A stretch of DNA of 59,521 bases, filler included, from Thelocarpon superellum (Eukaryota), in assembly GCA_026025795.1 (NCBI GenBank). It is 3 parts of 3 records of this genome, joined end to end, with 100 filler letters (N's around TTAATTAATTAA, not from the genome) between each part and the next. Parts side by side here need not be neighbours in the genome. Positions count along the whole stretch, not along the records: positions 19,902 to 39,680 come from JAPEUG010000340.1; 2 more parts are not named here. One strand, given 5' to 3'. The notes beneath the pieces are model-generated. The model searched no databases, was not told the origin of the DNA, and saw nothing but the letters and a program-made list of their open reading frames with translations. Positions 6,727 through 51,750 of the stretch are shown piece after piece (within the stretch, counting starts at the first letter, position 1; each line of letters starts with the position of its first letter). The position numbers were made by a program, and so were the translations under genes.

Positions 6727-6760
<34 letters not shown>

Positions 6761-19801: not shown

Positions 19802-19901
19802 NNNNNNNNNNNNNNNNNNNNNNNNNNNNNNNNNNNNNNNNNNNNTTAATTAATTAANNNNNNNNNNNNNNNNNNNNNNNNNNNNNNNNNNNNNNNNNNN
19901 N
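19802..19901. other. Artificial contig spacer N44-TTAATTAATTAA-N44
   Basis: Six-frame-stop linker inside Ns; unrelated truncated genes on each side. Confidence 0.97.
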
Positions 19902-19902
19902 T

Positions 19903-21951
19903 CGAGACGAGCGGTCCGATCTGAAGCGTCGGCGATTGCAGACGGCCCGGGCCGAGACGGAGGCCGAGCCGGGATGGGAAACGGAGATTGATCTCCTCGG
20001 CGGTGTTCAGTCACTGCTAGATCAGCCGGTGGAGGCCGGGGAACACTCGTACGAGGAAACCCTCTCGTGCGTCCATGTCAATGTCAATCCCAGTCGCCAT
20101 GTCCACCAACGTCACGTCATCCCGCAAGCTGCGCTGATGAGCGTCATGAGTGCCTACGAGCCATTTGGAATTGTGCGACCGCCGACTTCGATTCTGCACC
20201 AGCAACTGGACACGGTTTTGACCGATGCGCCGTGCCCATCCCACGCGAACGACCTCATTCTATCTCATCCCGGACTCTCCTGGTCAAGCTCTTCCAGCAC
20301 CTCACCATCCATCCCTCCGTCGCTCCCACAAGTCGACGAGACCGACATACTGCACAGAGTCCTGCACGCCGTCGTCCTGTGCAAGATGTCGGTAGACTCT
20401 GATCATCTCCTGGCCGCACCTGAAGCAGCGCACCACGCACCCCCTCGCTTGGGCGCTCTGCACACAATCCTGTCCCTGGAAGAGCCGCTTGAGGCGCACG
20501 AGGAGGAGACGCAGTCAACGTCTTCGCCCACGACCGCTCGCCCTTGCTCTCCAGATGTCGTCGCCGAATCAAACCCGCCGTCCCCAGGTCTTGACGTTGA
20601 GGCAGCTACGGAGGAATCCATGTACGAATGCTCACCATTAAAAGCCTCGAAGCCGGACGCACCCTCATCGAGAGCGTCACCGTCGAAAGCGTCTCCATCG
20701 AAAGCGTCTCCATCGAAAGCGTCTCCATCGAAAGCGTCTCCATCGAAAGCGTCTCCATCGAAAGCGTCTCCATCGAACGCGTCACCATCGAAAGCGTCTC
20801 CATCGAAAGCGTCTCCATCGATAGCGTCTCCATCAAAGACCTCGTGCGTCATGAATGAGGAGATCCTCGAGGATCTTATCAGCCTGAATGCCACATCGCC
20901 GTGGCTCGTTCAGTTTGGGGGATCGGCCCACGGTGCAGAGGAAGACCTTATCGCAACGGACGTGACAGAGCAGACGCCGGCACCGGAGGAGTCGGAATCT
21001 GAATCAGATGCCGCAACGGATGGACAAGGGAACATGTCAGCAACTGAAGCAGTGTCGGAGCTGAGCGCGTGTATCGACGAGGATACCAGCATGTTGCAAG
21101 ACTTCCTGGGACGCGTGCGGGCCCGCAAAGCCGCGAAGGAAGCGCAGGAGGCACAGTCAAACAGCCAATCACCCACGGTCTCTTCGACAGCCGCGCGACA
21201 TCCCCTCGGCCACATCAACTCCCACTCGCCGCCTCAGGGCAAGAGTCGCAGTCCCGAGAGCCGGAGGGAAGACCCGCAAGACGAGAACTCGACGGACCGT
21301 CAGGAGCCCGACGCGACGGGACAAGATGCCGAAGACACAGTGACCTTCCGACGCAGCAAGCGCACACGCAACTCCATCGGCGGTAGCTCGAGCACCACCA
21401 GAGGCGCCCACGACGGCCCCAGCTTGATCCCCGTCCGTCGCATCCCCGGCTTCGCGGAGACTGTGGTGCTCGAGCCGTCCGAGGCGCAGAAAGTCGCCAT
21501 CATCACACGCGTCAACACGCGTCGAAACAAAGGCCAGCCGTGCACGCTCGTTTTGAAGAAGCTGAGTGCTCATCCGGTGGATCCGTCATCCCTTGGTCCC
21601 ACTGTGGCCAACACGAACACCAGTCTCAGCGGCGTGGTCATTGCCAGTAGCGCCACAATCGCCAGCAGTTCCTCGAGTACCACCTCCAGCGCCAGCGCAA
21701 CATCAACCAAGAAGCAGAAGAGCGTACGCTGGGACCAGCAACTGACCTACTTCCAAGACGGATCGGGCAAGACGAGCAAGAAGCAAAAGAAGAAGGGGAC
21801 AGGAAAGACACGACGAACACGCTCATCCGACGCCGCCAGAGTCGATGATGCTATCACCGCCACCATCGCAGACGACCGCGTTCAGGGCGCAGATCGCAAC
21901 GTCAATGGCACACCGGCGCCCAAACGCCGCAGACTTACGCTCGAATCATGA
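19903..21951 (+). CDS. Uncharacterised Ser/acidic-rich, probably disordered protein (5'-truncated) with (ASPSK)11 array, KSVRW motif and basic NLS-like tail
   Basis: Frame is open from the gap to TGA at 21949-21951 (more than 680 codons). Contains ITRVNTRRNKG, KQKSVRWDQQLTYF and PAPKRRRL. Confidence 0.75.
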   Translation, partial: RDERSDLKRRRLQTARAETEAEPGWETEIDLLGGVQSLLDQPVEAGEHSYEETLSCVHVNVNPSRHVHQRHVIPQAALMSVMSAYEPFGIVRPPTSILHQQLDTVLTDAPCPSHANDLILSHPGLSWSSSSSTSPSIPPSLPQVDETDILHRVLHAVVLCKMSVDSDHLLAAPEAAHHAPPRLGALHTILSLEEPLEAHEEETQSTSSPTTARPCSPDVVAESNPPSPGLDVEAATEESMYECSPLKASKPDAPSSRASPSKASPSKASPSKASPSKASPSKASPSKASPSNASPSKASPSKASPSIASPSKTSCVMNEEILEDLISLNATSPWLVQFGGSAHGAEEDLIATDVTEQTPAPEESESESDAATDGQGNMSATEAVSELSACIDEDTSMLQDFLGRVRARKAAKEAQEAQSNSQSPTVSSTAARHPLGHINSHSPPQGKSRSPESRREDPQDENSTDRQEPDATGQDAEDTVTFRRSKRTRNSIGGSSSTTRGAHDGPSLIPVRRIPGFAETVVLEPSEAQKVAIITRVNTRRNKGQPCTLVLKKLSAHPVDPSSLGPTVANTNTSLSGVVIASSATIASSSSSTTSSASATSTKKQKSVRWDQQLTYFQDGSGKTSKKQKKKGTGKTRRTRSSDAARVDDAITATIADDRVQGADRNVNGTPAPKRRRLTLES
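20674..20838 (+). repeat. Coding minisatellite, 11 x 15 bp (consensus gcgtctccatcgaaa)
   Basis: Read directly; encodes ASPSK x9 plus ASPSN and ASPSI. Confidence 0.95.
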
Positions 21952-22792: not shown

Positions 22793-22862
22793 TCCGAGCC
22801 ATATCTGCCCGAGTGCTCCCTCACTCAAAGCCATCCGGAGGTACTCCTCCTAGCATCGAGCG

Positions 22863-22993
22863 TGTCAGGATTGCAGGTCACGTGGACTGCCACGTGACCC
22901 CTCAGCTCATACAACTAGCAAGTTTGCTCTAGCTTAGCTAGTTAGACAATACAATCACTAGCTTCTACCTGAATAAAGGCTGAGAGCCTGACA
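22863..22993 (+). repeat. 5' LTR (131 bp)
   Basis: Matches 30765-30895 except at 22925 and 22981. Contains AATAAA (22972-22977) and a hairpin with two CACGTG boxes (22876-22899). Confidence 0.97.
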
Positions 22994-22996
22994 GCC

Positions 22997-23004
22997 TGGT
23001 AGCA
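22997..23004 (+). promoter_or_regulatory. Putative primer-binding site (tRNA-iMet type)
   Basis: TGGTAGCA begins after a 3-nt spacer downstream of the LTR. It is one G-to-A change (at a CpG) from TGGTAGCG, the Ty3-type complement of the initiator tRNA-Met 3' end. Confidence 0.6.
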
Positions 23005-23290
23005 ACACTGTTCAACAATCCTGTCCTCAGCGACACTTCCCCAGCACATAGACACTGTGTGGGGATATCCTACTGACTTCTTTAGACCCTGACATACATG
23101 GCCAGTCTGGACATTCTGAGCCCAAGATTCACTTGATCAAGCTCTTCAACTGACAGGAGAGAAGTAAAAAAACCCACTTCAACCCCCACTTCAACCTCCC
23201 ATCCCAATCTCATTTCCCTTTGCCCTTCTCACCATTTTGTCTCCCTTGTCCATTCTGCTCCTTTCTCCCATTTCGCCCTCTACCTTCATT

Positions 23291-25189
23291 ATGGCAGATT
23301 TGGTTGAGCCCTCTGCAGAGGAAGGCTGTCAAAATCAGAATGGATCATTGGCCTAGGTCGAATCACCCACAAACCTGCCAAGACAGCTAGACAAAGGAAA
23401 AGGACAAGCCAACACCTTCTACTAGAAAGGGGACTACATCAAGGAGTCAGTCCTTCTGTTCTATGTCCTCTAGCAGATCAAGAGAGACCCAGACCACACC
23501 CTTTTCAATTACTTTGTGGCAACTGATTATGCTACAACCTGAGCAATGGTCTGAACCCTGGGAAAGGGGCAGCAACAGAAGCTGTTTACTAAGGCACAAC
23601 AATCCTGTTGTCTTGATGACAACCCTCTAACAAGTAAGGACATGCTCAAGGACCTAATCAATCAGGTTAGGAAGGGACCAAGCATACTCAATGAAGAAGA
23701 CTTGAGTAGTGACCTTGACCTAGAAGGGTCTCCAAGGCCTTCTTCACAGGAACAAATAGATGTGCTAGAGTCCTAGGTCAAAGCACTCCTCAGGCACCAG
23801 TCCCTAGCTCCAGACACCCACAGGAGAGAGCAAGCTGTAGAGGACCTGTTTCAAGTCACTCAACAACCATCCCAGCTGTTTCAACTACCTGCATACCCTG
23901 TTACTTGAAGCAGCAGACTAGTGGATGCCTTTGAAGAGTGTCATCAATCAGCATCATTAGCAGCAGCTACCCACCCCTTGTCACAACAGGGACAGTACTA
24001 TCCAAACTTGCAAAACAACCCCTAGGGACACTACTCCTAACAACTGTTTAGCACTGAGTACTAGGACCAAAACCCACCAGACAGAGACACAATGGGACCA
24101 CAAAAGCCTTGCCTGAACCTGAAGGAGATCACTATTTTTGACCCATCCAAGCTGGAGATGTCAGTCCATTCTTTCATTAAGAGGTTCTATCAAATCGCTG
24201 ACTTGGAAGGAATGGATGTGGTGATGAGGGTCTTACTAATGTGCCTTGAAGGCACAGCTCAAGATTGGTATATCAGCCTTGCAGGAGCTGAGACTTGACA
24301 TCTTCACCACAATCTGTGATACTAGGAAGAGCTCTTGATTGCCTAGTTTGTAGGCAATAAGTAGGAAGCATGGGGAAGAGCACAGAGAATCAAGTTCTAG
24401 TTCAGCACAGAAGACAAGACATCCCTATCCTAGTACATCTACTAGAAAGTCAATCTCTTTCACAAGGGAGAATTGTGGGAAGAGGATGAGATTGTTTACT
24501 CCCTGTGGCAAGGCCTGGACCCACACCTGATGGCAAATGTACAAATTCAGCTACAGGGAAATACGATTGCCAGATTTACAAGAGATGCCCAAGATGTGTA
24601 CTACACAAGCCAGCAACTGTGGACAGAGCACAACCAAGGCTGTTTCCCTAGACCAACTAATTCTGTGAGTCCCTGGGTGACTAATTTCACAAGTGTCCCT
24701 AGGAGCAATTCCTATGAGTGACAAGACAACAACGCCTGCCTCACCCAACTAACCTAGGATTCCTCCTCCAATCTCTGCTTCTTGCAACTGCTGCAGTTGT
24801 TAGAGTTGAAAGGAAATGAGGGAATTCTGGCCTAGCGAAATCACCTGGATACTAGCGCACCCTGAGGAGTGACAGCAAAGGCAGGTTCCTGCTTCATCTG
24901 CAGTAGTATGGAGCATTGGGCAAATTGTTGTCTAGAGAAGAACTCAGTGAGTGGTAGAAGGAATCTGTTGACATGTGTCTGCTTCATCAATGAGGAAACT
25001 GACATGCTGTTAGACAAAGAGATGATGTCTATCCCAATAGGTGAATTCCATAGACTTATAGAAGCCTAGTACAGGAGCAAACTGGGACAACAGGCCCCTT
25101 TTGACAAAGATGTTGATATGGGAGAGTTGCCCAACACATCAGATTCCAAACCCCTACTACCACTACTACACTGTGATGCAAAAAACTAA
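23291..25189 (+). pseudogene. gag: gag, multiple premature stops
   Basis: Single frame from ATG 23291 through ORF fragments 24092, 24473 and 24869. Capsid-like FDPSK...FIKRF...LEGTAQDWY; zinc knuckle CFICSSMEHWANCC (CX2CX4HX4C); TAA at 25187-25189. Confidence 0.85.
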
Positions 25190-28100
25190 AGACTAGAGCT
25201 AGAGAAGTTGATGGCTCTGGCTCTAGAGCAAGGAGGTTCTATTAACAGCCTTTATTAATCATTTTGACTGGTTGTAGCTATACACTTACTAGCCTCAGGT
25301 TCTAGTGCTTTACACAGGCATGAGCTTATACACTAGACAAGCATTGAGATTACATCGAATTCTGCATTGACACTAGTTCCACAATTTCATTGATATCTGA
25401 CACCTTCCTTTTTGCACACTTCTCTAGTTTAGTGTGTGTACAGCTCTCTCTCCAACACTGCATCTGTTTGCATAGCATCAATAAGACAAACAAGTTGTTC
25501 ATAGATGAATTTGTTTAGATAGAGTGGAATATCCTAAGCACAGAGATTGACCCTATTTGTTTCTTGTCAGAGGTGCACATCATGCAATCTGTAGTATGTA
25601 ATTTGCTTATGGGCACTAGGGTGATGAAGGTGAAAGGGATGTGGCTAGTGTTGAACCTAACACAAAAGGATGACTGGATTGAATGTGATGGGAAGACAGC
25701 AAAGATCAATACTTTCAAGCCAAAGACAAAGCAACTGGAAACCTGTCAGTCAAATCCAACAGTAAAGGCCATTACAACTGCTTTTGCAGACCTCACAATG
25801 AAAGAGCTTCTTCCTAAGGTAGATGATGCAGAGACAGTGCTAGATGATCTCCCATTTGAGATAGGACTGATAGACAAGTCATCTGAAATTTCTAATATTT
25901 CTGATAAGTGGCTAGCAGACATTAGCAGGAGGTTGTGTCAAACAATCTTGAGATTTACAAAGGGGCTATTCTCCAAGCTCCTAGGAATGTTCAACAACAA
26001 CATCGAAATGAGCATTCTGTTTGCCAATGAGTCCAACTTCCAAGGTTTGAAGCAAGCACCTTATTAGCATTCACCTTGGGCAAGGCAGGCAATGGATGCA
26101 ATCTTGAACCCCTTAGTGGAGCAGGGTTGGGTAGAGAGAGTTCTGCTTAGACACCCTTGCCTAGCTTCCTCCCTGGCATTTGTAGTGTGGAAGAGGAGCA
26201 AGGCAAGGGTTGTGGTTGACTTGAGAAGGGTCAACAAACACCTAGTTCCAAACACCTACCTGCTTCTGAAGCAGGATGACATTCTCAACACCCTGAAGGG
26301 GGTGATGATCTTTACTAGCCTGGATATCACTAAGGGCTTCTTCTAGCAGTGGATCCTTGAGGCAGATTGATAGAAGACAGCCTTTGTGACACATAGGGGA
26401 CTAGAGCAGCTGACTGTGTCAACAATGGGCTTGGCTACTTTCCCTAGCTTCTTTCAGGCACAGATGGAGACTCTATTCTAAGGAATCCTGCACAACTTTG
26501 TGGAAGTCTACATCAATGACATCTTGATCTTTTCACAATCCCTAGAGGCACACATTCAACACCTTAAGGAAGTTCTCAGGCAATTGCAAGAGATTGGGGT
26601 GACTCTTGCCCTGTCTAAAAGCTTCTTCACATTCAAATCAGTTCAACTTCTAGGGCATTGAGTGTCTTGCTTAGGTTATACAACTCTGGACAACAAGACA
26701 GAAGCAATAAGAGCCTTGAAATTCCCTTCCTCCCTCCATGAGCTCAAGACAGGTCTAGGTCTTTTCAGATACTACTGTAAATTTGTTCCAGGGTACTCAG
26801 CAATCACAGAACCACTCCAGAGGCTCAAGACAACCAGCTTCTGTGACACACCTCAAAAGGGAGCTGAGAGAAGGAGGCATGCTGAGATATATAAGCTTCC
26901 ACAATCCCTCAAGTGCCTAGAAGTGTGGGAAAAGCTCAAACACTAGTTGTGTAATCCCCCAACCCTCACATACCCTGATTTCACAAGACTGTTCATCCTG
27001 TACATAGACAGATCAAAGGAGAGGGGTTTTGGGGCAGCCTTGCACTAGAAAGGAGGAGATGGAACAGACATCGAAAGGCTACTCCTCTTTCTCTCAAAGT
27101 CATTGTCGCAATGGGAAGCCAACTACAGGGCAACAGAACTTGAGGCTACCACTCTAGTCTAGACACTGAAAAAGATTCCACAGTTCACAGACAGCACAGA
27201 CCTAACAGTTCACATGGACTATGCTGCATTGCACTAGGTGGTTGACAAGGCAAGAGAAGGATCAAGAAACAATCATCTTATCACATAGGTATTGTTCCTT
27301 TCCAAATACCCTAACATGACCATCAGACACTGACTAGGAATGGCACAAGCGCATGCAGATGTGCTATTGAGGCTCCCTATAGCTGAGACACTCATTCTCA
27401 CAGTGCTGATGATGAAACCAGAGCTGAAGGAGGAGATTTTGAGTGTGACAAAGGTTGATCCACACTATTGAGTTATCCTAGAGGCCTTAGCAAAACTCCT
27501 AGTGGATGTGATCAAGGGACTAACTGACTACCATGGATTCTGCTAGGAGGATGGCCTACTTTGCCTTGTGGTGAAAGGACTAGATAGACACCTATCAACA
27601 GAAAGTCAAATCTGTGTGCCCTTAAGTGCCATGGAGCAATTTCTTCAAAGTGCTTATAACAAACATGCACACTAGGGACCACAAAAGACATACAAGCAAC
27701 TGTGGTGAGACATCTATTGCCAGAATCTCAAGAAGACTGTGGAGTTGTATTGCATGTCCTGCCCTGCATGTCAGCTTTCAAAGCTGTCCTATCACCTCCC
27801 CTATGGCTGTTTGCAGCCAATTTTAACCCCTCTGCATCCCTTTGTGACACTCTCTCTAGATTTTGTCACAGGCTTGCCCAAATCTATTTCTTTGTTTGAT
27901 TGCATCCTATTAGTTATAGACAAGTTCTCAAAGGGTGTCAAGTTGATTCCAGGCCTAACTACATGGTTGGCAAGGGACTGGGCTACACTGTTTTTTAACA
28001 GAGTGATCTGTAATTAGGGATTACCTCAAGCCCTTGTTTCAGACAGAGACCCCAAGTTCATGTCCCTGTTCTAGAAGTTGTTGTTTAAGCACATAGGGAC

Positions 28101-28905
28101 CAAGTTGTGCTATACCTTGTCATACCACCCCTCAGCCAATAGACAGGTAGAAAATTCAAACCACACAATGGAGGTGGCCCTGCACTGTCTACTAGTTGGT
28201 TCTTACAAACTGCAATAGGAGCAGCGCTTACTGGAGGTGGAGTACACAATCAACACTTCTGTTCATGTAGTGACAAAGACAACACCTTTTAAGGTGATGT
28301 ACAGCATCAGACATCACATAGGGATTGGTGGAGAGAAGAGCACCCTAGGATTGGTCAAGGACTTCTCAAAGTGCTAGGAAAGAATCTGCTCCCAAGTTGA
28401 AGATGCACTCTCAATGACCCAAGCCTGAATGGCCTTCTATTTTGACAAACACCACAATCCATGTGAACTAAAAGGTATAGTATACATCAGAATGGCCAAA
28501 GGGATTAAGGAAGGGTATCAACTGCCTAACAGCACAAAGCTGTCAGTCACTCAATCAGGGCTGTTCTGGATCAAACAACAGAGAGGACCTTTCACATACA
28601 AATTGGAACTTCTACAAGATATGAAGATTCACCTAGTCATTTCAGCAATACACCTTGAGCAAGCTGAGACCAACCAGTGGAACTGACACATCCCTTGACC
28701 TACACCAATTGTCATCTCAGGCCAGGATAGATACCTGGTCCATCAAATCATGCAAAAGGAGAAACAAGGGAATCACTAGATGTATTTGGTGCAGTATGAA
28801 GGGTTTGAAGAGCCAGAGTGGCAACAGGTGTCTTCACTCAAGAAAGATGTACCACAGCTAGTCAAAGAATTCAAGTGTTCCCTCCAAGAGTGACTAGAGA
28901 GCTAG
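25180..28905 (+). pseudogene. pol: pol (protease, RT, RNase H, integrase, chromodomain), -1 frame relative to gag, multiple premature stops
   Basis: PR FCIDTSS (from DTG, about 25369); RT VVVDLRRVN, LDITKGFF, VYINDILIFS (from YIDD); RH FILYIDRSKERGFGAAL, NYRATELE; IN H*G...CPACQ, LSLDFVTGLP, SDRDPKF, YHPSANRQVE; GPY/F-like KIHLVISAIHLE; chromodomain YLVHQIMQK...YLVQYEGFEEPEW. The 3' end is approximate. Confidence 0.93.
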
Positions 28906-29106
28906 GGGACCCAGCAGAATTCCATTTCAACAGTGGTGAATCTGTTTGTCCAACTCCTTCATTCCATACACCAATCCAGTACACTACCCCAACCTTTTTC
29001 CACCCTCACTCCATCCTCTGACTTCTTCTCACCTCTATTAAACCACTCCTCCCTCAAGTTATGTCTACAACTTGACCACTTCTGTTACCCCTGCCCAAAC
29101 ACAGCT

Positions 29107-30672
29107 ATGGCTGACTGCAAGGGCTCATTTCCATACTTTGTCAACATCTTTGAGCTCCTTGACATCAAGAGAAGTGTAACAACAGCTGAAATCAGCAGGG
29201 CCCTCACTCAGTCAACTCTGAAATATCATCTAGACAAGCAGACCAACACAACAGACACTGAGAAGGAGCTGGTGGAGGAAAAGATCCAAGAACTCAACCA
29301 TGTCTGTAGCATAGTCACAAACACATGGAAGTGGACAAACTATCAGAGGCAGCACCACCATGAGATAGACACCTTCTTCCATTTGAAGAAAGAACAGCTA
29401 CAAGCTGCAGAAGAGGCCAAACAACAAGCTGCTTAGGCATAGTGCAAGGTAGAAGAAGCAGAGTGTGAGTGCCTTGCAGAGGCTGCCTGCACAGCAGAAG
29501 CAGAGGCAGCAGAAGCTGCCCACACAGCAGAGGCAGAAGCAGCAGAGGCTGCCCACACAGCAGAAGCAGAAGTGGCAGAAGCTGAGCATTTGGCAGCAAT
29601 CTGTGAGAAAGAAGAGCACTAGTGAAAGAAGGACAAGGAGCAGTGTCATCTGTTCAAACAATACATCTCACTAGAGGAAGAAGTTAATAGGGTGAAAAAG
29701 GAACTAGAAAGACTAGAGGATGTCTGTCTAGCAGAAATCGCAGCAGCAAAAGAGAAAGCTGCAAAACTTCAACAAGACACTGAGTTGGTCCATTGCACAT
29801 GGACAGAGCAGGCACACCTGTCCAACAAGCCCTCTGACACAGAACAGAACAAGTGAAACAAGCATGACAGCCACACCCCCCTACATAGCCTTGACAACAC
29901 ATGTCAGGCTTGCTAGGCACTAGAGCCAGGTCCTCCCTAAGAGGAGACACCACAACAACCTGCTTGACAAAACCCTGTCAAGCAGCCCTCAACCCTGCTC
30001 ACAGACCCCACCTCACTCAACAGCATGAAGCCTAGGTCAAAGCTTGGTAAGAAGTCAAAGGGAGTTACAGATGGCATCCTGATTGGTTAGTACACAACAG
30101 ACTCTGACCCAAAGTGTGTCATATATGCAGGATTTGGGATAAAGGGACAGCTTCTACAACACCTTTCAAACCTGTCCAACAACAGCACAGTCATTCCAGA
30201 CAAGGGCTGTAATGGCAAAACCAGAGCTTTGGTTAGACAGGACAAAGTCATCTACTTCAACCAATTCAAAGGCACATCAGAGGACATGTTGGTGGAAGGA
30301 GATTTTGTGTTTGAGGCCCTGAAGCAGAAGGGTTGCACAAGTGGATGGGGATGGTCATCTTACTTAGAGATGAGGAATGATCCACAACACTGAGTAAGGG
30401 GCAGAGCAAAGCACAAGCAGGGCTCGAGCACAGAGGATTCAGGCGCCTACAACACTTTCAAGGAAAGCAACATCAACAAGTGTCAAGAATGAGTCCAGTC
30501 AATCCTCAGACACATCGACAAGGCCTGGAATACCATACAGCCAAAGGCCACAACAATTAACAAGCTGGGAGACACTACAGTGGACATGATCCAACATCAC
30601 TCAAACAAAGTCATCAAAGAGATATGAAGGATGCTTGCCAACATTGATGCTGACATCCAAGCCATCTGGTAG
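29107..30672 (+). pseudogene. Third (accessory) ORF of the retrotransposon: J-domain + Ala/Glu-rich helical repeat + unassigned C-terminal region
   Basis: One unbroken frame of about 520 codons interrupted only by stops explainable as C-to-T or G-to-A changes. N-terminus NIFELLDIKRSVTTAEISRALTQSTLKYHLDK...EEKIQELNHVCSIVTNTWKWTNY fits the J-domain pattern (YELLGV...A...EIKKAY...ALKYHPDK...EKF.EI..AY.IL.D..KR..YD). The 3' end is approximate. Confidence 0.82.
29476..29583 (+). repeat. Three 33-bp coding repeats plus a partial unit (ancestral approx. AEAARAAEAEA)
   Basis: Read directly within ORF3; copies differ by tgc/cac at a presumed ancestral cgc codon. Confidence 0.85.
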
Positions 30673-30755
30673 CTACCAGCACTTCTGCCATCTCAACCAC
30701 CACCACCTCACCTTCATTTCAATCAGGCGAGGACACAGATGTCCTCAATTGCGTT

Positions 30756-30764
30756 GGGGGGAGA
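30756..30764 (+). promoter_or_regulatory. Polypurine tract
   Basis: GGGGGGAGA immediately 5' of the 3' LTR. Confidence 0.85.
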
Positions 30765-30895
30765 TGTCAGGATTGCAGGTCACGTGGACTGCCACGTGAC
30801 CCCTCAGCTCATACAACTAGCAAGTTCGCTCTAGCTTAGCTAGTTAGACAATACAATCACTAGCTTCTACCTGAATAAAGGCCGAGAGCCTGACA
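30765..30895 (+). repeat. 3' LTR (131 bp)
   Basis: Direct repeat of 22863-22993, followed by TSD GAGCG. Confidence 0.97.
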
Positions 30896-32684
30896 GAGCG
30901 GATCCATGGACATGGATAGGCCGGCGTGTTGCGAGATAAGATCCACGACCACGTCCGCATCGAGACCCACCGACTCCCACTCCTCCAGCGGCCCGAGCCA
31001 CGGTCCATCCAGCTCTACCAAAGTCCTCGACCCCACATTCCCTCTTCCGACCCCACACCTTCCGTGCACGCGTCATCTTCATCGTCGGTATGGAGGGATC
31101 GGGCCAGGTTTGCCCTCGTCACTCGAATAGACTTTCTGCTTAATGTTCTGTAAGCTGTTCTTGCGCCCTGGTAGCCGCGCTCCTAGACCTTCCCCAGTCT
31201 TGGCATCTGGGGTCCGCCATGCTCAACCTCCTTCCGGTGTTTGCATTTGCGCGGAGACAAGAGCCCCGTGCTCGTCGCCTTCCGTTAGTCCACCAGCGGC
31301 AGAATTGTGATGAGGCATTGAGGACGACAGGCGGCCGGTCACCACGGACATCCGTCTTGCCGTGTGCGGCAGGACCGCAAGACCGCAGGTCAACGACGCG
31401 ATCGGTGGACGGTGGATGATGGCGTGAACGTATGCCCGAATGAGGATGGACGACGGGATAATGCTCCGAACGATTGTCGCGTCTCCGACTCGTCGTCGGG
31501 CACGAGACTGCCGATCGCTTCGGGTGATCCACGGCTGAAACGCGGGGTACCTGGCGACTCGTCGACTCGGTGACCCGAACGTACTCGGACGAAGTACTTC
31601 CTACTACTGGGTACAGCAATTCCCGGCCAGACAAGGCCGCGCCTCTTGTGCTGATAGACGGACCTACCCGAGCGATCGTCCGCGCATGGAAGTCACAAGT
31701 CGTAGACACGGCGGCTGTGGGTGAAACATCTTGCCCATTTCATCCCCCATGAGACAGGCAGGTCGCATGTAGCAGAGTGACGTCTCCAACGCCAGACATA
31801 TCGACCCGCACTCCTGCATGATGCAGTGCGTGATGCATCGTGCGTCTTACGTGTCCTGTCATCACCACATACATAGCATAGACATGTGTGGTCTACTATG
31901 ACGAGCGCGCTTGGAAGAGCCATGGCGGTCACAACGGGGATGCCTCATCGGGTGCTCCTTGAGCAACGGGAGGGAGATTGGCCTCGACCCGATGTGAGCC
32001 TCGTCCGCCTACCGTCAGCGTGAGGATGACGGGCCTGCCTTCTTCTCGGAGATGACGTCTCCTTATCTATCCACGGGCCGGCGGACCCTCGAACTGTGGC
32101 GTTTGCGGGATTAGTGGGTCTGGCGTCCGGAGCAGACGGTGAGGTTGGCACTCCCCAAGTGGAGCAGACCGTAAGGCCATCTTCGTGGGCACCGCCGAAT
32201 TGGGGCTTTGGGCGACGAGATTTCTAGGGTTCGGGGCGGTGACTGTTGGCGACAACCGTGGGACTGTAGTCGGGCGCCGCCCGAGCGAACCACGACGCGG
32301 GGCTGCAATGTTTACCCCGTCGCATTGGTCAACTTTGAGTAACGAATTGCTTTTTCCCTCGGAGCGGAGCGGTTCCTGACTCATTATTCCGCCCAAGAAA
32401 GGTGACTACACCGCTGGTACCGTCGGGACCATGGTACCCAATTCCCGTCTTCGGTTACGCCATCTTGCGTCAGATACTCGCAGTCCGCAAGAGCGCTGTG
32501 GACTACACCGTGCTACCCCACCACTACTGTGGTAGGCTCGGACGCCGCGGGGTTGGCGGTGCGGTTGGGCCTCCGCCTCCCCCTTCTGGCGCGCGTTGCG
32601 TAAGGTCGTCCACTGTTACGACCAGTAGCACCAGTCCTGAGAACTACTTTGTACTTAAAAAATTAGGTAGACAGACGGGCCAGC

Positions 32685-36474: not shown

Positions 36475-39325
36475 ATGGCGCCCCAACGGGATACGTTGTT
36501 CCGCTCGGCGGACATGTCCCTGACCCAGCTGTACATCGCCACCGAGATTGGCCGTGAGGTTGTCAGTGCCTTGGGCGAGATCGGCGAGGTGCAGTTCCGA
36601 GATGTGAGTGGTCGTGGGCCGGCCGCCCCATTTCCATCGGCATCCGTGCGTGTGCGCTGACCCTCGTCTCGACAGCTCAACGCCGACACCACGGCCTTTC
36701 AGCGCACCTTCACCAAGGAGATCCGGCGACTCGACAATGTCGAGCGGCAGTTGCGTAGGTGACGGCAGCGTCTTGTCCACCATGACCCCGAGCTGACCCC
36801 GGATAGGGTACTTTTCCTCGCAGATTGAGAAAGCGTCCATCCCTCTCCGCTCCGTGCACGCCGCCGCCGATGTCTTCGCCGCCCCGTCCGCCTCGGAGAT
36901 TGACGAGCTGGCCGACCGCAGCGAGGGCTTGGAGCAACGCGTCAGCTCGCTCAACGAGAGCTACGAGACCCTGAAGAAGCGCGAGGTCGAATTGACCGAG
37001 TGGCGATGGGTCCTACGAGAGGCCGGCGGCTTCTTCGATCGCGTGAGTGGCCGGGTGCATGGGCACGGGGGAGACGACCGTCCACTGACCGGCGCGCGAC
37101 AGGCACATGGCCATACCGATGAGATCCGACACTCGGACGACGAGAATGACGAGGCGCCGCTGCTGCAAGATGTCGAGCAGCACGTGCCCGGACAGAATGG
37201 CGAGGTCCAGTCCTTCTCCGTCATGAACATTGGCTTCGTCGCCGGCGTCATCCCGCGCGATCGCATCGCCGCGTTTGAACGCATCCTCTGGCGCACGTTG
37301 CGCGGCAATCTCTACATGAACCAGTCCGAGATCCCCGAGTCGCTGACCGACCCCACGACCAACGAACCCGTCAGCAAGAACGTCTTTGTCATCTTCGCTC
37401 ATGGCAAGGAGATCCTGGCCAAGATCCGCAAGATCTCCGAGTCGCTGGGCGCCGACCTGTACAGCGTGGACGAGAACAGCGACCTCCGCCGCGATCAGAT
37501 CCACGAGGTCAACGCGCGCCTGGGCGATCTCTCGAGCGTGCTGCAGAACACCAAGCGCACCTTGGACGCCGAGCTGACGCAGATCTCGCGCAGCCTGCAG
37601 GCCTGGACCATCATCGTCAAGAAGGAAAAGGCCGTGTACGAGACGCTCAACCGCTTGTCCTACGACCAGGCCCGGAAGACGTTGATCGCCGAGGCCTGGT
37701 GCCCCACCAACGCCCTCCCCCTCATCAAGTCCACCCTGCACGACGTCACCGATCGCGCCGGCCTCTCCGTGCCCTCCATCGTCAACGAGCTCCGCACGTC
37801 CAAGACGCCGCCGACGTTTGTGCGGACCAACAAGTTTACCGAGGGCTTCCAGACCATCATCAACGCCTACGGCACCGCCAAATACCAAGAGGTGAACCCG
37901 GGCCTCCCCACCATCGTCACCTTTCCCTTTCTGTTCGCCGTCATGTTCGGCGACCTGGGGCACGGCTTCATCATGACTTTGGCCGCGCTGGCCATGATCT
38001 CTTTTGAGCGTACCCTCTCCAAGCGCAAGCTCGACGAGATCTTCTCCATGGCCTTCTACGGCCGATACATCATGCTGATGATGGGCGTCTTCTCCATGTA
38101 TACGGGGCTCATCTACAACGACGCCTTCTCCAAGCCCCTGACGCTGTTCCCCAGCCAGTGGGAGTGGCCGTCGGACTTTCAGGAGGGCCAGACGGTGGAC
38201 GCCAGCCTCAACACCAAGGGCTATCGATATCCCTTTGGTCTGGACTGGGGCTGGCATGGGACGGAGAACGATCTGCTGTTCTCCAACAGCTACAAGATGA
38301 AGCTCAGTATCCTGATGGGCTGGGCGCACGTATGACGCCCCCGCCCGTGCGGTGAAGACCGATGCTGACCCGCGCCAGATGACGTACTCGCTCTGTCTGT
38401 CGTACATCAACGCCCGGCACTTCAAATCGCCCATCGACATCTGGGGCAACTTTGTGCCGGGCATGGTCTTCTTCCAGTCCATCTTTGGCTATCTCGTCTT
38501 CACCATCATCTTCAAGTGGTGCTTCGACTGGCCTGCCCTCGGCCAGGAGGCGCCGGGCCTGCTGAACATGCTCATCTACATGTTCCTGTCGCCAGGCAAG
38601 GTGGAGCAGCCGCTCTACCCGGGCCAGAGCGTGCTCCAGGTGCTCTTATTGCTCGTCGCCCTGGCGTGCGTGCCCGTCCTGCTGCTCCTCAAGCCCCTGT
38701 ACCTGCGCTGGGAGCACAATCGGGCGCGGGCCCTGGGCTATCGTGGCATCGGCGAGAGCACGCGGGTTAGCGCGCTGGATGGGGATGAGGACGAGGAGCA
38801 CGCGGGCATGAATGGCGCGCGGGACAGCTTCGGCAGCGACGGCGACGTGGCCATGATCACGCAGAACCTAGGGGAGGAGGAGCATGAGGAGTTTGAGTTC
38901 TCCGAGGTCATGATCCACCAGGTCATTCACACCATCGAGTTCTGCCTCAACTGCGTCTCGCACACGGCCTCCTACCTCCGCCTGTGGGCGCTCTCGCTGG
39001 CGCATCAGCAGCTGTCCATCGTGCTGTGGACCATGACCATCGGCATCGCCTTTAAGCAGACGGGCTGGCTGGCGGTGGTGATGATCGTGTGTCTCTTCTA
39101 CCTCTGGTTCTTTCTCACCATCGCCATCCTGTGCGTCATGGAGGGCACCAGCGCCATGTTGCACAGTCTCCGCCTGCACTGGGTGGAGGCGATGAGCAAG
39201 CATTTCATGGGAGACGGGGTACGTGTCGCGCCATCCTTGAGGGGAGCCATCACTGACAGGCCTAGATTCCCTTTGAGCCCTTTAGCTTCAAGGTGTTGTT
39301 GGAGGAGGATGTCTTGGAGGGATGA
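36475..39325 (+). CDS. VPH1: V-type ATPase V0 subunit a
   Basis: [92 protein letters not shown]. Five GT-AG introns; last exon 39266-39325. Confidence 0.96.
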
Positions 39326-39326
39326 T

Positions 39327-39468
39327 CAGGAGGACCAGAAGGCCAGGAGGACCAGAAGGCCAGGAGGACCAGAAGGCCAGGAGGACCAGAAGGCCGGGAG
39401 GACCAGGAGGACCAGGAGGACCAGGAGGACCAGAAGGCCAGGAGGACCAGGAGGACCAGGAGGACCAG
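39327..39468. repeat. Compound minisatellite of caggaggac (9 bp) and cagaaggc (8 bp) units in the VPH1 3' flank
   Basis: Read directly; starts 2 nt after the VPH1 stop. Confidence 0.9.
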
Positions 39469-39680
39469 TGGGGAATCGTGACCCTCGCTGCTGTACCAAG
39501 TAGTGTACGATGCATCACAGAAATGTAGATATGGCGCTATGTGCACCAGGGGTGGTGGATTAGAAGATCTGATCGAGCACGCATCTCTCATTTCGTATGC
39601 TCGTCACAGTAACGTATCCCCACCCGTCTTCGGGAGCCTTACATCCAAGGGCCTCGGCAAGGCGACGACGCTCCCGCCCG

Positions 39681-39780
39681 NNNNNNNNNNNNNNNNNNNN
39701 NNNNNNNNNNNNNNNNNNNNNNNNTTAATTAATTAANNNNNNNNNNNNNNNNNNNNNNNNNNNNNNNNNNNNNNNNNNNN
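39681..39780. other. Artificial contig spacer N44-TTAATTAATTAA-N44
   Basis: Identical to the spacer at 19802-19901. Confidence 0.97.
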
Positions 39781-39954: not shown

Positions 39955-42549
39955 TCAGAACAATCCCAGAATATCCTCATGATTCTGCTTGGGCCCCGTC
40001 GCCGTCGCAAGCTGCTGGCTGGCCGGCGGCGGGGGGGTCGAGCCGTTGGTGAGGTTCAGTCCTCCGAAGCCATTCATCACATCCATCGCGCCCGGCCCCG
40101 CGCTACCTCCCTCGCTACCAAAGACGCCCATGAGGTCGTTGAGACCTTGACCGTGCGTCGCGGCCGAGGATAAGGCGGGCGACTCCACCCGCTGCGGCGT
40201 CCCTGCTAATCCTTCCAGCCCCGACGACCCCGCCGCCGGCGCCTTTTGCGCTGACGCCGGTGCCGCGCCGTCGAAGTCGAAGTCCAGTAGGTTTTCCGCG
40301 TTCGTCTGCGTCGGCGCCGGCCCACCTGACGCCGCGGCGGCCGCCGCCGCCGCGGCGATGGGGTTGTCTCGCGCATTTTGCATTTGCTCCCTGTCGCGCC
40401 ACGTTAGCTCGTGACCGAATTGCAGGAGGCATGGTGAAATGATGACAGCGGACGAGAGAGAAAGAAGAGTAACGCACTCAATCGCACGCTGCTGCACTAC
40501 GTCGGCCCCGTGCTTGCCCTGTCCGATGAAGGTCTCCGACGGCTTGTGGTAGACCGAGGCCAGCGTCGAAAGCTCCGTCAGTAGTTGGTCGAGGAGGACG
40601 GGCGGAAGCGATTGGATCGTCGTCGTAATCGCTGGTTTCGAGGAGAGCACAATGTTCTGCGAGCGTCAGTCAATCGTGGTGCCAGCGGAGAAGCCGGAGC
40701 GCGGACCTTGGTGATTTGTGGATCGCTGGAGAGCAGTCGCCAGTAGACGTATGCCCGATCGCGGATGTCCGGGTTGTCATTCTCCGCCGTGGCGATCTGC
40801 AGCACCTTCTGCACCAACGCTTGGGATTGATTAGGCTTCTTGAGGAACAGCTTGATCACCGCCGTCAAGATCTGCAGCTGCGTCTGCGTGAATTCCTCCA
40901 TGAAGCCCTCGACAAAGCCCGCCAGGATCTCATCGGCGTTGTTGATCTTCTCCGCGTACTCGCCCACGATCCAGATCAACGACCCGCGCGCGTTCGGCTC
41001 GTCGAGCTCGTCGATGCATTGGCACAACGTCGGGATGATGCCTTCGTAGCCGGGATACTTGCGGAAGATGTCCTTGATCACCACGATCGCTTCCTGCACC
41101 ACGTAGTTGACCTTGGTCGCGATCAGGTCGAGCAGCGCGTTGACGCATCGCTCGCTCGCGCTCTCAATCTTGATGGCCGCCTGACCGATGGCCTTGACCG
41201 CGCGCCGCACGAAGTCCATGTCCACCTCGAGCGCGTACTCCTTCAGCTCCGCCAGCAGCTGGTCCACGTTCTTGTCGTTGACGATCCGCACCATGATCTC
41301 CAGCTTCTGCAGCTTGACGTACGGTGGGTCGTTATACTTGCAGAAGAAGACGCGCAGCTCCTTGCTAAGGATGTCCGGCTGCTTCTGCAACAGCAGATCG
41401 ATGTTACGCAACGCGACATATTGCACTTCGGGGGCCGAGGAGACCAGCGTCACTGTGCCTGTTAGCCCATCCCTCCGCCACGGGCCCATGCACACGTACC
41501 GAGCGGTGGAGCCATCTTGCGGAGATACTGTCGGTTTACGTCCGGACTGATGTGCCGCATGTGGAGGAAGACGACCTTCACCGCGGCCAAGACGACGGAC
41601 GGGTTGACGTGCTGGAACTGCGGCGACACGCGCTCGCAGATGTGCTCGGCTTCTTTGACATCGACGGCGCGGTAGTCGGCCAGGGTGGAGAGGATGGTGA
41701 CCCGCCCCCACTCGGTGCACTCGTTCAGCGCCATGAGCATCTTCTTGAGCGTCGTCGGCGTGATGAGCAGCGCCTTCGTCTCCGGTGCCGTCTCGGAGAT
41801 CTCGGCCAACGCGGTGACGGCGTTGGCAACGACCATGGGATTTGGGTCGCCAATCATCTCTTGCAGCGACTCGAGAAAGCCATTTTCCAAGCACATGGCC
41901 GGATTGAGATCGAACAGCTTGGCCACGCAGATGGCCGCCGTCTTGCGCACGTACGGCGACTCGTCGCGAAGCGTCTTGCGCAGCGGTTCCTCCATGTAAT
42001 CGACCATCTTGTCTACCCGGATACAGCCCATGGTCCGGATGGCGAGGGCACGCACCAGGGGATTGGGATCTTCCGAGTCTTGGACGAAGGTGTTGACGGC
42101 GAGAATGCACAGATCGGGGTGTGATTTGGCGTAATTCCTACCATCGTCGTCATCACTCACGGCCCTCCAGCGGCACCCATGGGCGGCCGGACTCACATGA
42201 GATAGAGGTAGACGAGCTTCTTCTGGTCGAGGTCGGCGGTGGCGATGTTCTTGAGCACGTCCGGGAACAGGGCCGAGACATCTTTACCCAGGGTCATGGA
42301 CATGATGGTCTTTTGGATGGATTCCTTTCTGCCATCGTCTCAGCTTCGGTCCTGGGTCATTCGTCATTCGGGCCAGCATGGTGGACACTCATACCGTTCC
42401 CAAGCATATTGAGAGCTGCGCACACCATCCATGGTCAGCAACGCCACACGTCTGGGAGCGAGGGATGCTCACACCAGACCCGCCCGCAGCTCAAACGTCT
42501 CGCCCTTCCTCGGGACGGCAAAGGCCCCTCGGATGCGATTGACAGCCAT
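39955..42549 (-). CDS. APL2: AP-1 adaptor complex beta subunit (beta-1 adaptin)
   Basis: [26 protein letters not shown], 21-nt microexon 42415-42395, [73 protein letters not shown]; ends EDILGLF. Confidence 0.93.
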
Positions 42550-49016: not shown

Positions 49017-51750
49017 TTATCCACCGCGCTCACCAAACATTCGGGCCCACTCCTCAAACTCCTTGAGGCCCTCCTTGCTCACGCTCGGTCGAATGTTGAC
49101 CAGTGACGCATCAAAGTCCTCCGCCTGGATCGGGCGGATCTCGTCCATCGACATGTGCAGGAGTGCTTCTCCTAGACTCCGGAGCGGCCCCATTGCCGCA
49201 TCCTTCGCCAGCGCCGTGATGTCTGATCCGGAGAATCCTGCCTCGTGTCAGCATGGAAGCGCCCTCTGATGGAATTGCCCAGGGGAGGGGGAGGGCTACC
49301 ATCGGTCAATCGGATCAATCGCTGAAGGTCCTCCTCGTCGAGATTGTGCTTCTGATGTCCCAACAACGTGCGTAGTTGCGTCCCTCGCACCGGTCCTTCC
49401 GGCAGGGGAATGTACTGTCGACGGACGAAGCGTCGCCGGGCGGCTTCGTCAATGGCCCAGGGGAGATTGGTGGCGGCCAACACCAGCACCCGGCTCGCAT
49501 CGCCCTTTTCCTTTTCCTTCTCGCTCTGTTCGCGTCCGGCGGCGGCCCGGGCAAGGTCGGACCACTGGATGAGGAACTCCGTCTTGACCCGTCGCGACGC
49601 CTCGTGTTCCGTCCCGGACCGAGCCGACAGCAGCGAATCGATCTCGTCCACAAAGATGATGGATGGCGCCAGCGCTTTGGCCAGCGCAAACAAGGCCCGC
49701 ACCAGCTTCTCCGACTCGCCCAGGTACTTGGACGTGAGGCTGCTGGCGGAGATGGAGAAGAAGGTCGATCTCGATTCCGTCGCCACGGCGCGCGCCAACA
49801 TCGTCTTGCCCGTTCCCGGCGGCCCGAACAGCAACATCCCCCGAGCCGGTTCCCGCAGCCCCATGAACAGATCCGGGCGGAGAAAGGGATAGACCACCGC
49901 CTCTTTCAAGGCATTCTTGGCCACGTCTAACCCCGCAACGTCATCCCAGTGGACCTCATCGCCATGGACCACAATCTCGTTGAAGATCTGTTTGGCCGCC
50001 GTCTCGTCCACCCCCGGCGGCAGATGCTTCATCACCTGCTCCACGCGTTTCTTCCACGCCCGGTCCTCGGCCGATGTTCCCACGTCAGACGTGCTGGTCG
50101 GCGTCGAACGATCCTTCTCTCGTGACCTCGGCGGCCCACTGCTGCTCGCACTGGCGTCGCTCACTGACTGCTCCGACGACCCACTATCTGCTCGCGCATG
50201 GACTGGCTTGCGTGCCATCGACGACGGAGCCACGGCCTTGCGCGGCACGGGTGCCGTCGGCGGGTGGTCGGTCACGCGGGACTTGCGCAGCGGAGACTTT
50301 GCTCGGCTTGCTCCCGTCGGTGGTGCCGCCCGACCCGACCGAGCGTGGTGCGGCGGCACGGGAGGTGGCTTCTTCTCCGCGGTCGATGTGGTCCGAGACT
50401 GATACACCGGCCATTCATAAGCCGCCGTGCTCGGTCGTGGCGGGGACCTGGCTTTCTTCCTTGGTATCTCCCCTCCCACCTTTCGCTGGATCGCGGCAAT
50501 CCGAGGCGGCTGCTCCACCGGATCCAAGGTGATCAGGTCCTCCATATACTGCGATCGTGTGCTTGGTCGCCGGGATTCGCGCGCCTCTTGCGACGACGGA
50601 CGCGAGGTACTCTTCGTGGCCGTCGATCGACCGGGCATGAAGTCAGATGGACTGGGTGGGCGGATAAACGGCGTGTTCTCGGTAGCCGACGGTCTGCGAC
50701 GTGCATCTCCCTCCGACTCAGGGCGGTACAGCGGGCTGACATCCCGGCCCTCTTTGCGAGCGGCATTCAACGTGCCTGCGCTCCCCGTCTCGCCGTGGCT
50801 CCGTCCGATCCCGTCGCGAGCCGGCTGAGAGATGGCTCCCCACGCTTGGGTGGCTGCCTTGGACGCCGCGATCCCGCTCTCCTTCCGCTGGCCTGACGGA
50901 CGTGGAGACTTGGACGGCCGGTTCCCGTTTCGACCCGTCCGCAACGTCGTCCGGAGCCCACCCCGCTTCTCTGGACTCGGCGATCGTGAGGTCCTGGGCA
51001 GAAGCGGGGCCACGGGCAGGGTCGGAGAGGTCCGGCGCGTCGCTTGGGCCTTGACTTGGCCCGCGCTCGTCGTCCGTAGCTGCTCCATCGGCGTTCCTTT
51101 CTTCGTGAACCCTGGTCGCTGCGGGAGGGGTGGGCCTGGTCGTGCCAGGTCCGGATAGGTGACGGCGGGGATGGTGCCCTGGCCGATGAAGCCGCGCTCC
51201 GACTCGCTAGAGCGGCGGGGGTCCTTGACGGCGTCGGCCCGCGGTTGGGAGGATTGGGAGGAGGGCGCGGATGGGTCGTCGGTGCCGTTGCGGCTCGAGT
51301 CCAGCCGGCTCAGACGGAGAGTGTCAAGCAGATCCACCCGCTCCTTGCACCGCAACTCCATGTCACGCAAAGACTCCTGGAGGGCCCGCTCCGTCTCGGA
51401 ACGGGGGCGATAATGCGGGGAGACCCGGTAGGCGTTGTGGTAGTAAATTTGGTCCAGGGCCGCGCGCCATGACCGGAGGGCCTCTGCTTCGTTGTTCTTG
51501 AGAAATGGTTAGCCGGTGACACAGAGCGGGTCGAGGCACGGGGGTACCACGGGAGGGCATATGAGTGCACCATGACGACCCTATGTGGGCACGGGGGGCA
51601 CCATGGGGCTCCGGATAAGGGAATCACGACAGCACCATGGAGGGATCCTAGGGCACGTACCTGGTCCTCGAAGTAGACCGCCGTGGAGCACTTCAGATAG
51701 CACTCGTCAAACGTCTTCTGCATGGAAGACGCCGTGTTGTTCCGCATCAT
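49017..51750 (-). CDS. Spastin/fidgetin-like AAA ATPase (yeast Sap1/Yta6 type)
   Basis: [27 protein letters not shown], Walker A GPPGTGKT, Walker [49 protein letters not shown]. Three exons; TAA at 49019-49017. Confidence 0.93.

Follow-up and report, generated by a model that had tools for sequence, protein, structure and literature searches.

The stretch of DNA analysed here, hereafter the window, comprises 59,521 nucleotides of Thelocarpon superellum (assembly GCA_026025795.1) and contains a retrotransposon with long terminal repeats (LTRs) whose interior carries, besides a gag-like region and pol, a third gene that we call ORF3. ORF3 reads as the mutated but complete coding sequence of a J-domain protein, that is, of an Hsp70 co-chaperone. 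Both its homology to J-domains, as judged from sequence comparison, and its location inside an otherwise ordinary chromovirus are solid. Our best joint reading, to which we assign a probability of roughly 0.65, is that a low-copy retrotransposon family picked up a host J-protein gene as ORF3 and was later killed by hypermutation resembling repeat-induced point mutation (RIP).

ORF3 consists of 522 codons, the terminal TAG included, and ends 92 nt short of the 3' LTR. Since the match to the J-domain (residues 13-85) and the match to a C-terminal protein family (residues ~185-513) share one frame, no frameshift has to be assumed, and the single sense frame of about 520 codons put forward in the original prediction is borne out. 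Furthermore, the initial Met and the stop of ORF3 align with the N- and C-termini of stand-alone homologues, so that ORF3 represents one complete, uninterrupted coding sequence of that family and is intronless, as had been claimed. It contains 12 internal stops (5 TAG, 1 TAA and 6 TGA). The Ala/Glu repeat and the further domain that were expected behind the J-domain were both found there, the repeat sitting in a helical linker (residues ~85-250) where the aligned homologues have none. Pol and ORF3 also have a common reading frame, with no insertion or deletion over 5.1 kb (25519-30672), and are separated by 71 codons that include two stops (TGA 28891 and TAG 28903). A CAG is located 3 nt 5' of the ORF3 ATG. 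Downstream of pol, ORF3 may have been expressed either by read-through, given the shared frame, or from a spliced message, given the CAG before the ATG. ORF3 has the position of env but not its features: the highest Kyte-Doolittle mean over 19 residues was 0.65, no segment of ORF3 was of transmembrane grade, and a Pfam scan of ORF3 gave no env family.

J-domains bind Hsp70 via helix II, the HPD loop and helix III and trigger ATP hydrolysis, which locks Hsp70 on its client; class-C J-proteins link this stimulation to a private targeting domain. When ORF3 was read up to its first stop, Pfam DnaJ (PF00226) matched residues 14-79 at profile positions 2-62 of 63 (E 3.5e-5, 24.3 bits). An exhaustive phmmer search of 1,835,955,588 representative proteins (E<=1e-3) gave 10 matches in total, and the three on the N-terminus were all canonical DnaJ proteins (P0007, P0010 and P0011; E 2.6e-4 to 5.9e-4), which themselves score 70-86 bits to Pfam DnaJ. 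Against PDB sequences phmmer returned five matches, every one of them a J-domain (DNAJB2, Sis1, E. coli DnaJ). The best identity of ORF3 to any database protein was 37 %, and this in the J-domain only. With the DnaJ profile matched at this level and all N-terminal phmmer matches being DnaJ, the claim that the frame starts with a J-domain holds.

The other seven phmmer matches fell on residues ~256-513 (P0003, P0004, P0005, P0006, P0008, P0009 and P0012; E 7.5e-7 to 8.5e-4) and are proteins of 232-480 aa, in which a Pfam scan found no family covering the C-terminal part. In hhalign, ORF3 matched the profile of this family at 98.9 % (E 1.9e-17, 223 columns). The C-terminal half of ORF3 can, by its sequence, be assigned with confidence to this small uncharacterised family. 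The family motif reads G..DP.P.R...F...G.i.RR ... EG..F..L..G.T.GWG..Y.HM, followed by a helical hairpin, and the invariant columns of the alignment are G, D, P, F, Y, E, T, G, W and Y. ORF3 retains DP.P, F..G and T.GWG; it has QH for the RR of the family and KC for KR, replacements that are expected since CGN codons have been lost.

A J or J-like N-terminus is present in four members of the family (P0012, P0003, P0009 and P0015). P0012 (MCJ1367491.1), the only member with a recorded organism, comes from the lichen fungus Acarospora aff. strigata, where it is a hypothetical protein; it carries HPD and scores 31.1 bits to Pfam DnaJ against a cutoff of 27.8. The J-like domains of P0003 (RAPD), P0009 (NNPD) and P0015 are degenerate and without HPD, and P0003 and P0009 matched no Pfam family, compared with 24 bits to DnaJ for the mutated ORF3. 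ORF3 is like the family of MCJ1367491.1 in its architecture, its C-terminal motifs and its start and stop positions, and unlike these stand-alone predicted genes in its Ala/Glu linker, its retrotransposon location and its inactivation.

In the AlphaFold model of P0012 (pLDDT 70) the N-terminus adopts a J fold, with Z 9.1 and an rmsd of 1.8 Å over 65 residues to 7tgh_J1, and with Z 8.5 to 2dmx and 1wjz. For this model, Foldseek against PDB returned J-domains only, none at E<=1e-3 and the best being 2dmx at E 6e-3; the BFVD viral fold library gave weak J-domain rows only (E >= 7.7e-3), and the 0.78 of P0012 to DnaJ/DnaJ-X clusters in the ESM Atlas is a lead only, P0006 having no usable match there. 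The model of P0006 (pLDDT 85) comprises a small alpha/beta domain and a long helical hairpin, and Foldseek of the whole model against PDB gave nothing at E<=1e-3 (best 1kcf_B, E 0.16). In broader lists of structural matches the helical hairpin prevailed; its Z of 7.3-8.6 lies within the chance range for helical models. The alpha/beta domain had no convincing structural relative in these whole-protein model searches, no search having been made with the domain alone. As a separate observation, the alpha/beta domain of P0006, P0005 and P0012 may be undescribed, and some members pair it with a J or J-like domain and others do not. A word-index protein search found no match with ORF3, and with family alignments it found P0003, or P0005 and P0012, the index being insensitive to such divergence. 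Searches of metagenome contigs (with the family alignment and P0008) and of viral contigs (with the alignment) gave pattern matches and no relative.

The element that carries ORF3 stands out as one block of 40-50 % GC at ~22.9-30.9 kb, the remaining window being GC-rich (about 58-70 %), and this block is an LTR retrotransposon of the Ty3/gypsy group and chromovirus type. It spans 22863-30895 (8.03 kb) and is enclosed by a 5-bp target-site duplication (TSD), GAGCG. A direct repeat of 132 nt (22863-22994 and 30765-30896) has 2 differences between its copies; since its termini are TG..CA and the pentamer GAGCG flanks each end, the LTR proper measures 131 bp, the length originally claimed. The first 37 nt of the LTR occur twice within the window, with 0 occurrences expected. 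A polypurine tract (PPT), GGGGGGAGA, precedes the 3' LTR, and TGGTAGCAACAC is the putative primer-binding site by its position and its TGG start. The gag label is taken from position and from a CX2CX4HX4C zinc knuckle (24890-24931), since no Pfam family matched the region at E<=0.01. Reverse transcriptase (RT), RNase H and integrase follow one another in a single frame, as in Ty3/gypsy, when stops are read as X, and the Chromo match spans profile positions 1-51 of 53 at a weak, sub-cutoff score. The direct repeat, the PPT and the Pfam domains of pol together confirm that ORF3 lies inside the LTRs, between the chromodomain of pol and the PPT. The element is thus like fungal chromoviruses in its short TG..CA LTRs, 5-bp TSD, order of RT, RNase H and integrase, SH3_Tf2-1 and chromodomain (a weak match here), and unlike them in having ~1.8 kb extra, with a third gene, between chromodomain and PPT.

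Other copies of the element were sought in run X1, whose Logan contigs contain 0.93 of the words of the query stretch and were compared over 23000-31800. X1 was the single sequencing run listed as containing the stretch, and no RNA run was listed. There, 52 of the 151 contigs matched to the element were <99 % alike. Mean word depth was 177-260 in the six bins of ORF3, 150-160 in three flank bins and 160-316 over gag-pol, summed word depth not being the same as copy number. This summed depth suggests that further diverged copies cover ORF3. Among the 10 joints listed, none skips ORF3, and one diverged contig spans ~28713-28966, which takes it beyond the pol stop and into the spacer. Three contigs lead into the LTR from dissimilar flanking sequence, so that other loci exist. 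Among the variant places listed, none within ORF3 was of full single-copy depth, and there is a weak indication that the same genome holds no unmutated progenitor gene at >=80 % likeness. Nothing marks ORF3 as a separate later insertion, since neither a poly(A) run nor a flanking repeat of >8 nt is present at its borders. In all, ORF3 was quite probably carried through at least one transposition. In related organisms of the same study, runs X2 and X3 had 2 and 0 contigs, respectively, matching the element at >=80 % likeness.

The claim that ORF3 is as mutated as gag and pol is upheld by the density of stops, at 2.49 per 100 codons in ORF3 and 2.22 in pol (25 stops in 1125 codons), and by the observed/expected ratio (o/e) of CpG, which is 0.045 in ORF3 and 0.03 in pol. 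The latter is 0.07 in the leader plus gag and 0 in the spacer, and 1.07 in both flanks. Within the element TpG and CpA are in excess (1.3-1.7), and TpA is not enriched (o/e 0.49-0.69). None of the 522 codons of ORF3 is CGN, 29 are TGN and 54 are CAN, and all 13 Arg codons are AGR. At both differences between the LTRs there is CpG in the 3' LTR and TpG in the 5' LTR, and hypermutation largely spared these short repeats. The CpGs left number 2 in the 5' LTR and 4 in the 3' LTR (two CACGTG boxes each) and ~20 in the 7.8-kb interior (22994-30764).

Between the copies in run X1, 575 of 631 variant places were transitions. The context counts cover the 40 variant places listed, all of which were transitions, going either way between copies. 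At sites with T in the window and C in the other copy, the following base was G 8 times and A 6 times, and where the window has A and the other copy G, the preceding base was C in 7 and T in 7; of these 28 sites, 15 are in CpG and 13 in CpA/TpG context. From these contexts and the two-way transitions it follows that the process was RIP-like, acted on each copy independently and took CpG first and CpA second. The C-to-T and G-to-A change that had been predicted is therefore right as regards transitions, but it was not generic, being mainly CpG-directed with a CpA/TpG component. Like RIP, the changes are nearly all C-to-T/G-to-A, are limited to the element, ending abruptly at the LTRs (CpG o/e 0.03-0.07 inside and 1.07 outside) and are independent per copy. 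Neurospora RIP has a CpA-to-TpA pattern; unlike it, the process here had CpG as its main target (o/e ~0.03) and CpA as its second, with no enrichment of TpA. Deamination of methylated CpG in a silenced element may be an alternative to RIP.

As to the origin of ORF3, its homologues are stand-alone proteins of 232-523 aa that form seven clusters of 1-3 members each, on 1-5 contigs, some of them 38-82 kb in length; they look like single-copy host genes rather than transposon genes. The inferred loss of CpG per 100 nt, a rough measure, was ~6.0 for ORF3, 3.1 for gag and 3.8 for pol, with host genes standing at 10-12, and the evidence leans towards an origin of ORF3 that is host-like and more recent than that of gag-pol. 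After mutation, the GC content at third codon positions (GC3) is 0.52 in ORF3, 0.51 in pol and 0.86-0.88 in host genes; since this composition is measured after mutation, it cannot decide between host and element as the source of ORF3. The simplest account is template switching onto a host mRNA, which would explain why ORF3 is intronless, complete, in sense orientation and placed behind a C/T-rich stretch that resembles an untranslated region.

The history that we propose starts with a low-copy family of Ty3/gypsy chromovirus-type elements, of which the window holds one dead copy. Reverse transcriptase would have switched templates onto a host mRNA, and the family would thereby have gained a cellular-type, class-C (type III) J-domain protein whose four parts are an N-terminal J-domain, an Ala/Glu coiled-coil linker, an alpha/beta domain and a C-terminal helical hairpin. 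ORF3 would then have been carried along in at least one round of transposition, to which the single target duplication and the summed depth partly attest. Later, RIP-like C-to-T hypermutation directed at CpG and CpA hit all copies; in ORF3 every CGN codon disappeared and 12 stops arose, the degree of damage being the same as in pol. The intact protein would be predicted to dock Hsp70 via helix II, the HPD loop and helix III and to stimulate its ATPase, the C-terminal module picking the client or the place of action. If this was useful to the element, one could speculate that it aided folding or activation of Gag-Pol or RT, or particle assembly; ORF3 may equally have been a passenger. In this history the HPD ancestry, the family-wide carriage and the benefit to the element are the parts that we infer.

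Several points weigh against this reading. The HPD site of ORF3 reads H41-L42-D43 (codons CAT CTA GAC, 29227-29235), so that the HPD of the original prediction is HLD in the DNA, although its derivation from HPD in one step is plausible. L-K-Y-H-L-D-K of ORF3 aligns with L-K-Y-H-P-D-K of DnaJ proteins, and CTA (L42) is one C-to-T step from CCA, in CpA context. Since this context is among those of the element's own variants (6 of 14 T-for-C sites among the variant places listed), HPD is likely to have been the state before mutation. The K-R positions of helix IV carry TGG codons at 29326 and 29332, each one CpG step from CGG. The Pfam DnaJ check on the mutated ORF3 covered nearly the full profile but missed the gathering score of 27.8, with 24.3 bits when read to the first stop and 22.2 bits over all of ORF3. 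Since the sequence is a mutated relic, this weakens the case for a working J-domain and not for descent from one. Recruitment of Hsp70 is also not constant across the family, since P0003, P0009 and P0015 are without HPD. The homologues are just 22-28 % identical to ORF3, so that no donor gene is identified among them, and their description as host genes follows from cluster size, since no homologue's genomic context was seen.

Other points against it concern the copies. The claim that ORF3 was part of the repeated family agrees with the depth and with the lack of insertion marks, but the sequence of ORF3 was read in the window's copy only, and the surplus depth might in principle stem from a host paralogue, or from unrelated contigs matched to the Ala/Glu repeat. 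Furthermore, the diverged contigs have a depth of ~21-64, against ~113-160 for the window's copy and flank. This ratio of roughly one-third may reflect a subpopulation, a second strain or an assembly effect. Finally, since pol and ORF3 are in a shared frame, the unmutated ancestor may have encoded a Pol-J fusion in place of a separate third protein.

The original prediction went further than capture and proposed a retroelement family that encodes its own Hsp70 recruiter for RT activation, assembly or evasion of silencing, which would make ORF3 a selected accessory gene with intact gag-pol-J relatives. We consider this unlikely at present, even though a J-protein gene does occupy the position of env. 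It would suit a complete, sense-oriented gene that occupies the classic place of an accessory gene and is enclosed by one TSD; it would also suit a depth that suggests more than one copy with ORF3, with no joint among those listed being without it, and a J-domain that is more canonical than in most of the stand-alone relatives, at 24 bits despite mutation. Precedents for a need of chaperones are given in the available text on hepadnaviral reverse transcriptase, which requires activation by Hsc70/Hsp40 (PMC2094093), and on Ty1, where Zuo1, a J-protein, and Sse1, of the Hsp70 family, are listed in screens for host factors (PMC3522557). Against it, the 1.84e9 representative proteins hold no close relative of ORF3, intact or fragmentary (best 37 %, J-domain only), no pol-linked homologue was seen, and no intact gag-pol-J element was found in the proteins or contigs searched. 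The family is moreover low-copy and dead in this genome, and in the runs X2 and X3, from the same study, no such element is seen at >=80 % likeness.

Capture before transposition also has to be weighed against a one-off event, in which a J-protein gene or retrocopy entered an element that was already integrated, never transposed and was mutated by silencing or RIP between the LTRs. RIP and methylation can spread into unique DNA between repeats, the window's copy is the only one read across ORF3, and the homologues resemble host genes, all of which would agree with such an event. It is nevertheless improbable, since the borders of ORF3 have neither poly(A) nor a duplication of >8 nt nor residue of a second element, the loss of CpG in the middle of ORF3 (1.57 kb) is as complete as in pol, the depth of all six ORF3 bins exceeds that of the flank, and the spacer behind pol recurs in a diverged contig. 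That the J-likeness arose by chance from a mutated low-complexity frame, with ORF3 no gene remnant at all, might be suggested by the Pfam DnaJ score below the curated cutoff and by the 12 stops. This we rejected on statistical grounds as hardly conceivable, given two distinct regions of one frame with database-wide E values of 2.6e-4 to 7.5e-7, the hhalign E of 1.9e-17, a DnaJ profile covered over its full length, and a start and a stop that coincide with those of the homologues.

Extra open reading frames in LTR elements are as such already known; a J-domain cargo in a retrotransposon is apparently undescribed. A full-text search of the literature, with supplements and subscription journals outside its coverage, found no description of a retrotransposon with a J-domain gene; the original prediction likewise knew of none. 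According to the available text, the ORF3s of bdelloid rotifer LTR retrotransposons encode GDSL esterase, DEDDy exonuclease or env-like proteins (PMC5408684), and Gypsy elements of Phalaenopsis orchids carry an AlkB m6A demethylase (PMC9289625). As described there, these resemble the present element in having a cellular-type gene downstream of pol, within the LTRs and in sense orientation; the cargo here differs in being a J-domain co-chaperone, which is named in neither abstract (PMC5408684, PMC9289625). The available accounts of the rotifer and orchid cases also report many copies, expression or enzyme activity, whereas here there is one dead copy and wider carriage is only suggested. The terms "DnaJ", "chaperone" and "Hsp" have 0 occurrences in the available text of PMC9289625. 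For an LTR survey of 59 fungal genomes, the available text describes extra domains only in "complex transposons" formed by multiple insertions (PMC3248453), and "DnaJ" has 0 occurrences in that text.

As a selfish replicator with its own J-domain, the element is like polyomaviruses, with their large and small T antigens, and like the giant viruses and phages that have DnaJ proteins. The viral fold neighbours of the P0012 model are such proteins, among them those of Hokovirus and Terrestrivirus and the small T of a bandicoot papillomatosis carcinomatosis virus, all of them weak (E >= 7.7e-3). Unlike the element of ORF3, the J-domain viruses are DNA viruses, and the domain that follows their J-domain is unrelated to that of ORF3.

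LTR retrotransposons are known to capture genes, though rarely, and fixed cargoes such as envelope genes, dUTPase and AlkB (against m6A control) reveal the steps that are limited by the host. A J-domain cargo would mark Hsp70-dependent folding or assembly as such a step, which would fit the available text on hepadnaviral RT and Ty1 (PMC2094093, PMC3522557). If ORF3 was a working third gene, this would be the first retroelement known with a J-protein and a counterpart of the J-domain of polyomavirus T antigens; host Hsp70 would have been put to work on Gag-Pol or RT, on particles or against silencing, with the alpha/beta domain as the client-picking module. A further outcome is a small protein family without a name, whose alpha/beta domain is modelled with confidence (pLDDT 85) and finds no clear counterpart among known structures. 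The case at present amounts to one dead copy and is of value as a starting point for genome-wide and cross-species searches.

Table 1. Coordinates of the features of the retrotransposon and of ORF3, counted along the window.
Feature	Position	Strand	Basis
ORF3, complete intronless coding sequence of a J-domain protein	29107..30672	+	ATG at 29107, TAG 30670-30672
J-domain, residues 13-85	29143..29361	+	Pfam DnaJ, phmmer matches
Ala/Glu-rich repeat, ~33-nt units, AEAEAAEAAHT	29476..29584	+	direct-repeat family and translation
Conserved C-terminal module, alpha/beta domain and helical hairpin	30049..30645	+	phmmer, hhalign, alignment
Target-site duplication GAGCG, 5' copy	22858..22862	+	sequence; identical 5 nt after 3' LTR
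5' LTR, 131 bp, TGTCAGG...CCTGACA	22863..22993	+	direct repeat, 2 differences
Putative primer-binding site TGGTAGCAACAC	22997..23008	+	position 3 nt past LTR and TGG start
gag-like region and presumed protease	23291..25518	+	frame of 22997; translation, zinc knuckle
pol	25519..28893	+	frame of 22996; first stop TGA 28891-28893
RVT_1	26200-26661	+	Pfam E 1.1e-17
RNase H	26911-27309	+	Pfam RT_RNaseH_2 E 2.3e-15
Integrase_H2C2	27616-27783	+	Pfam E 6.3e-10
SH3_Tf2-1	28507-28641	+	Pfam E 4.7e-3
Chromodomain, weak	28732-28875	+	Pfam Chromo E 0.0018, 18.6 bits, below cutoff 25.1
C/T-rich spacer, 213 nt	28894..29106	+	pol stop to ORF3 ATG; 0 CpG
Polypurine tract GGGGGGAGA	30756..30764	+	abuts 3' LTR
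3' LTR	30765..30895	+	direct repeat
Target-site duplication GAGCG, 3' copy	30896..30900	+	sequence

The retrotransposon lies wholly within the middle of three joined pieces of ~19.8 kb. The linkers between them (19802-19901 and 39681-39780) have a layout of 44 N, 12 nt and 44 N, the 12 nt of the second linker being TTAATTAATTAA. Since the pieces are artificially joined, genes of the outer pieces need not be neighbours of the element. Just upstream of it, a Ser/Pro/Ala-rich open frame (19858-21951) includes about a dozen SKASP/ASPSK pentapeptide repeats at 20600-20860 (+). The window's housekeeping genes comprise Not1 (2667-9134, minus strand, a 2155-aa frame), V-ATPase subunit a (36797-38332, plus strand), a gene with an adaptin N-terminal region (40578-42134, minus strand), an AAA ATPase (49172-51505, minus strand) and ATG9 (56664-58907, minus strand). 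These genes have long uninterrupted exons and a GC3 of ~0.86-0.88 (Not1 and V-ATPase frames), in keeping with a fungal nuclear genome rich in GC. Downstream of the V-ATPase subunit a gene and beside the second N linker, a tandem repeat of GGAGGACCAG(A/G)AGGCCA-like units occupies 39330-39470.

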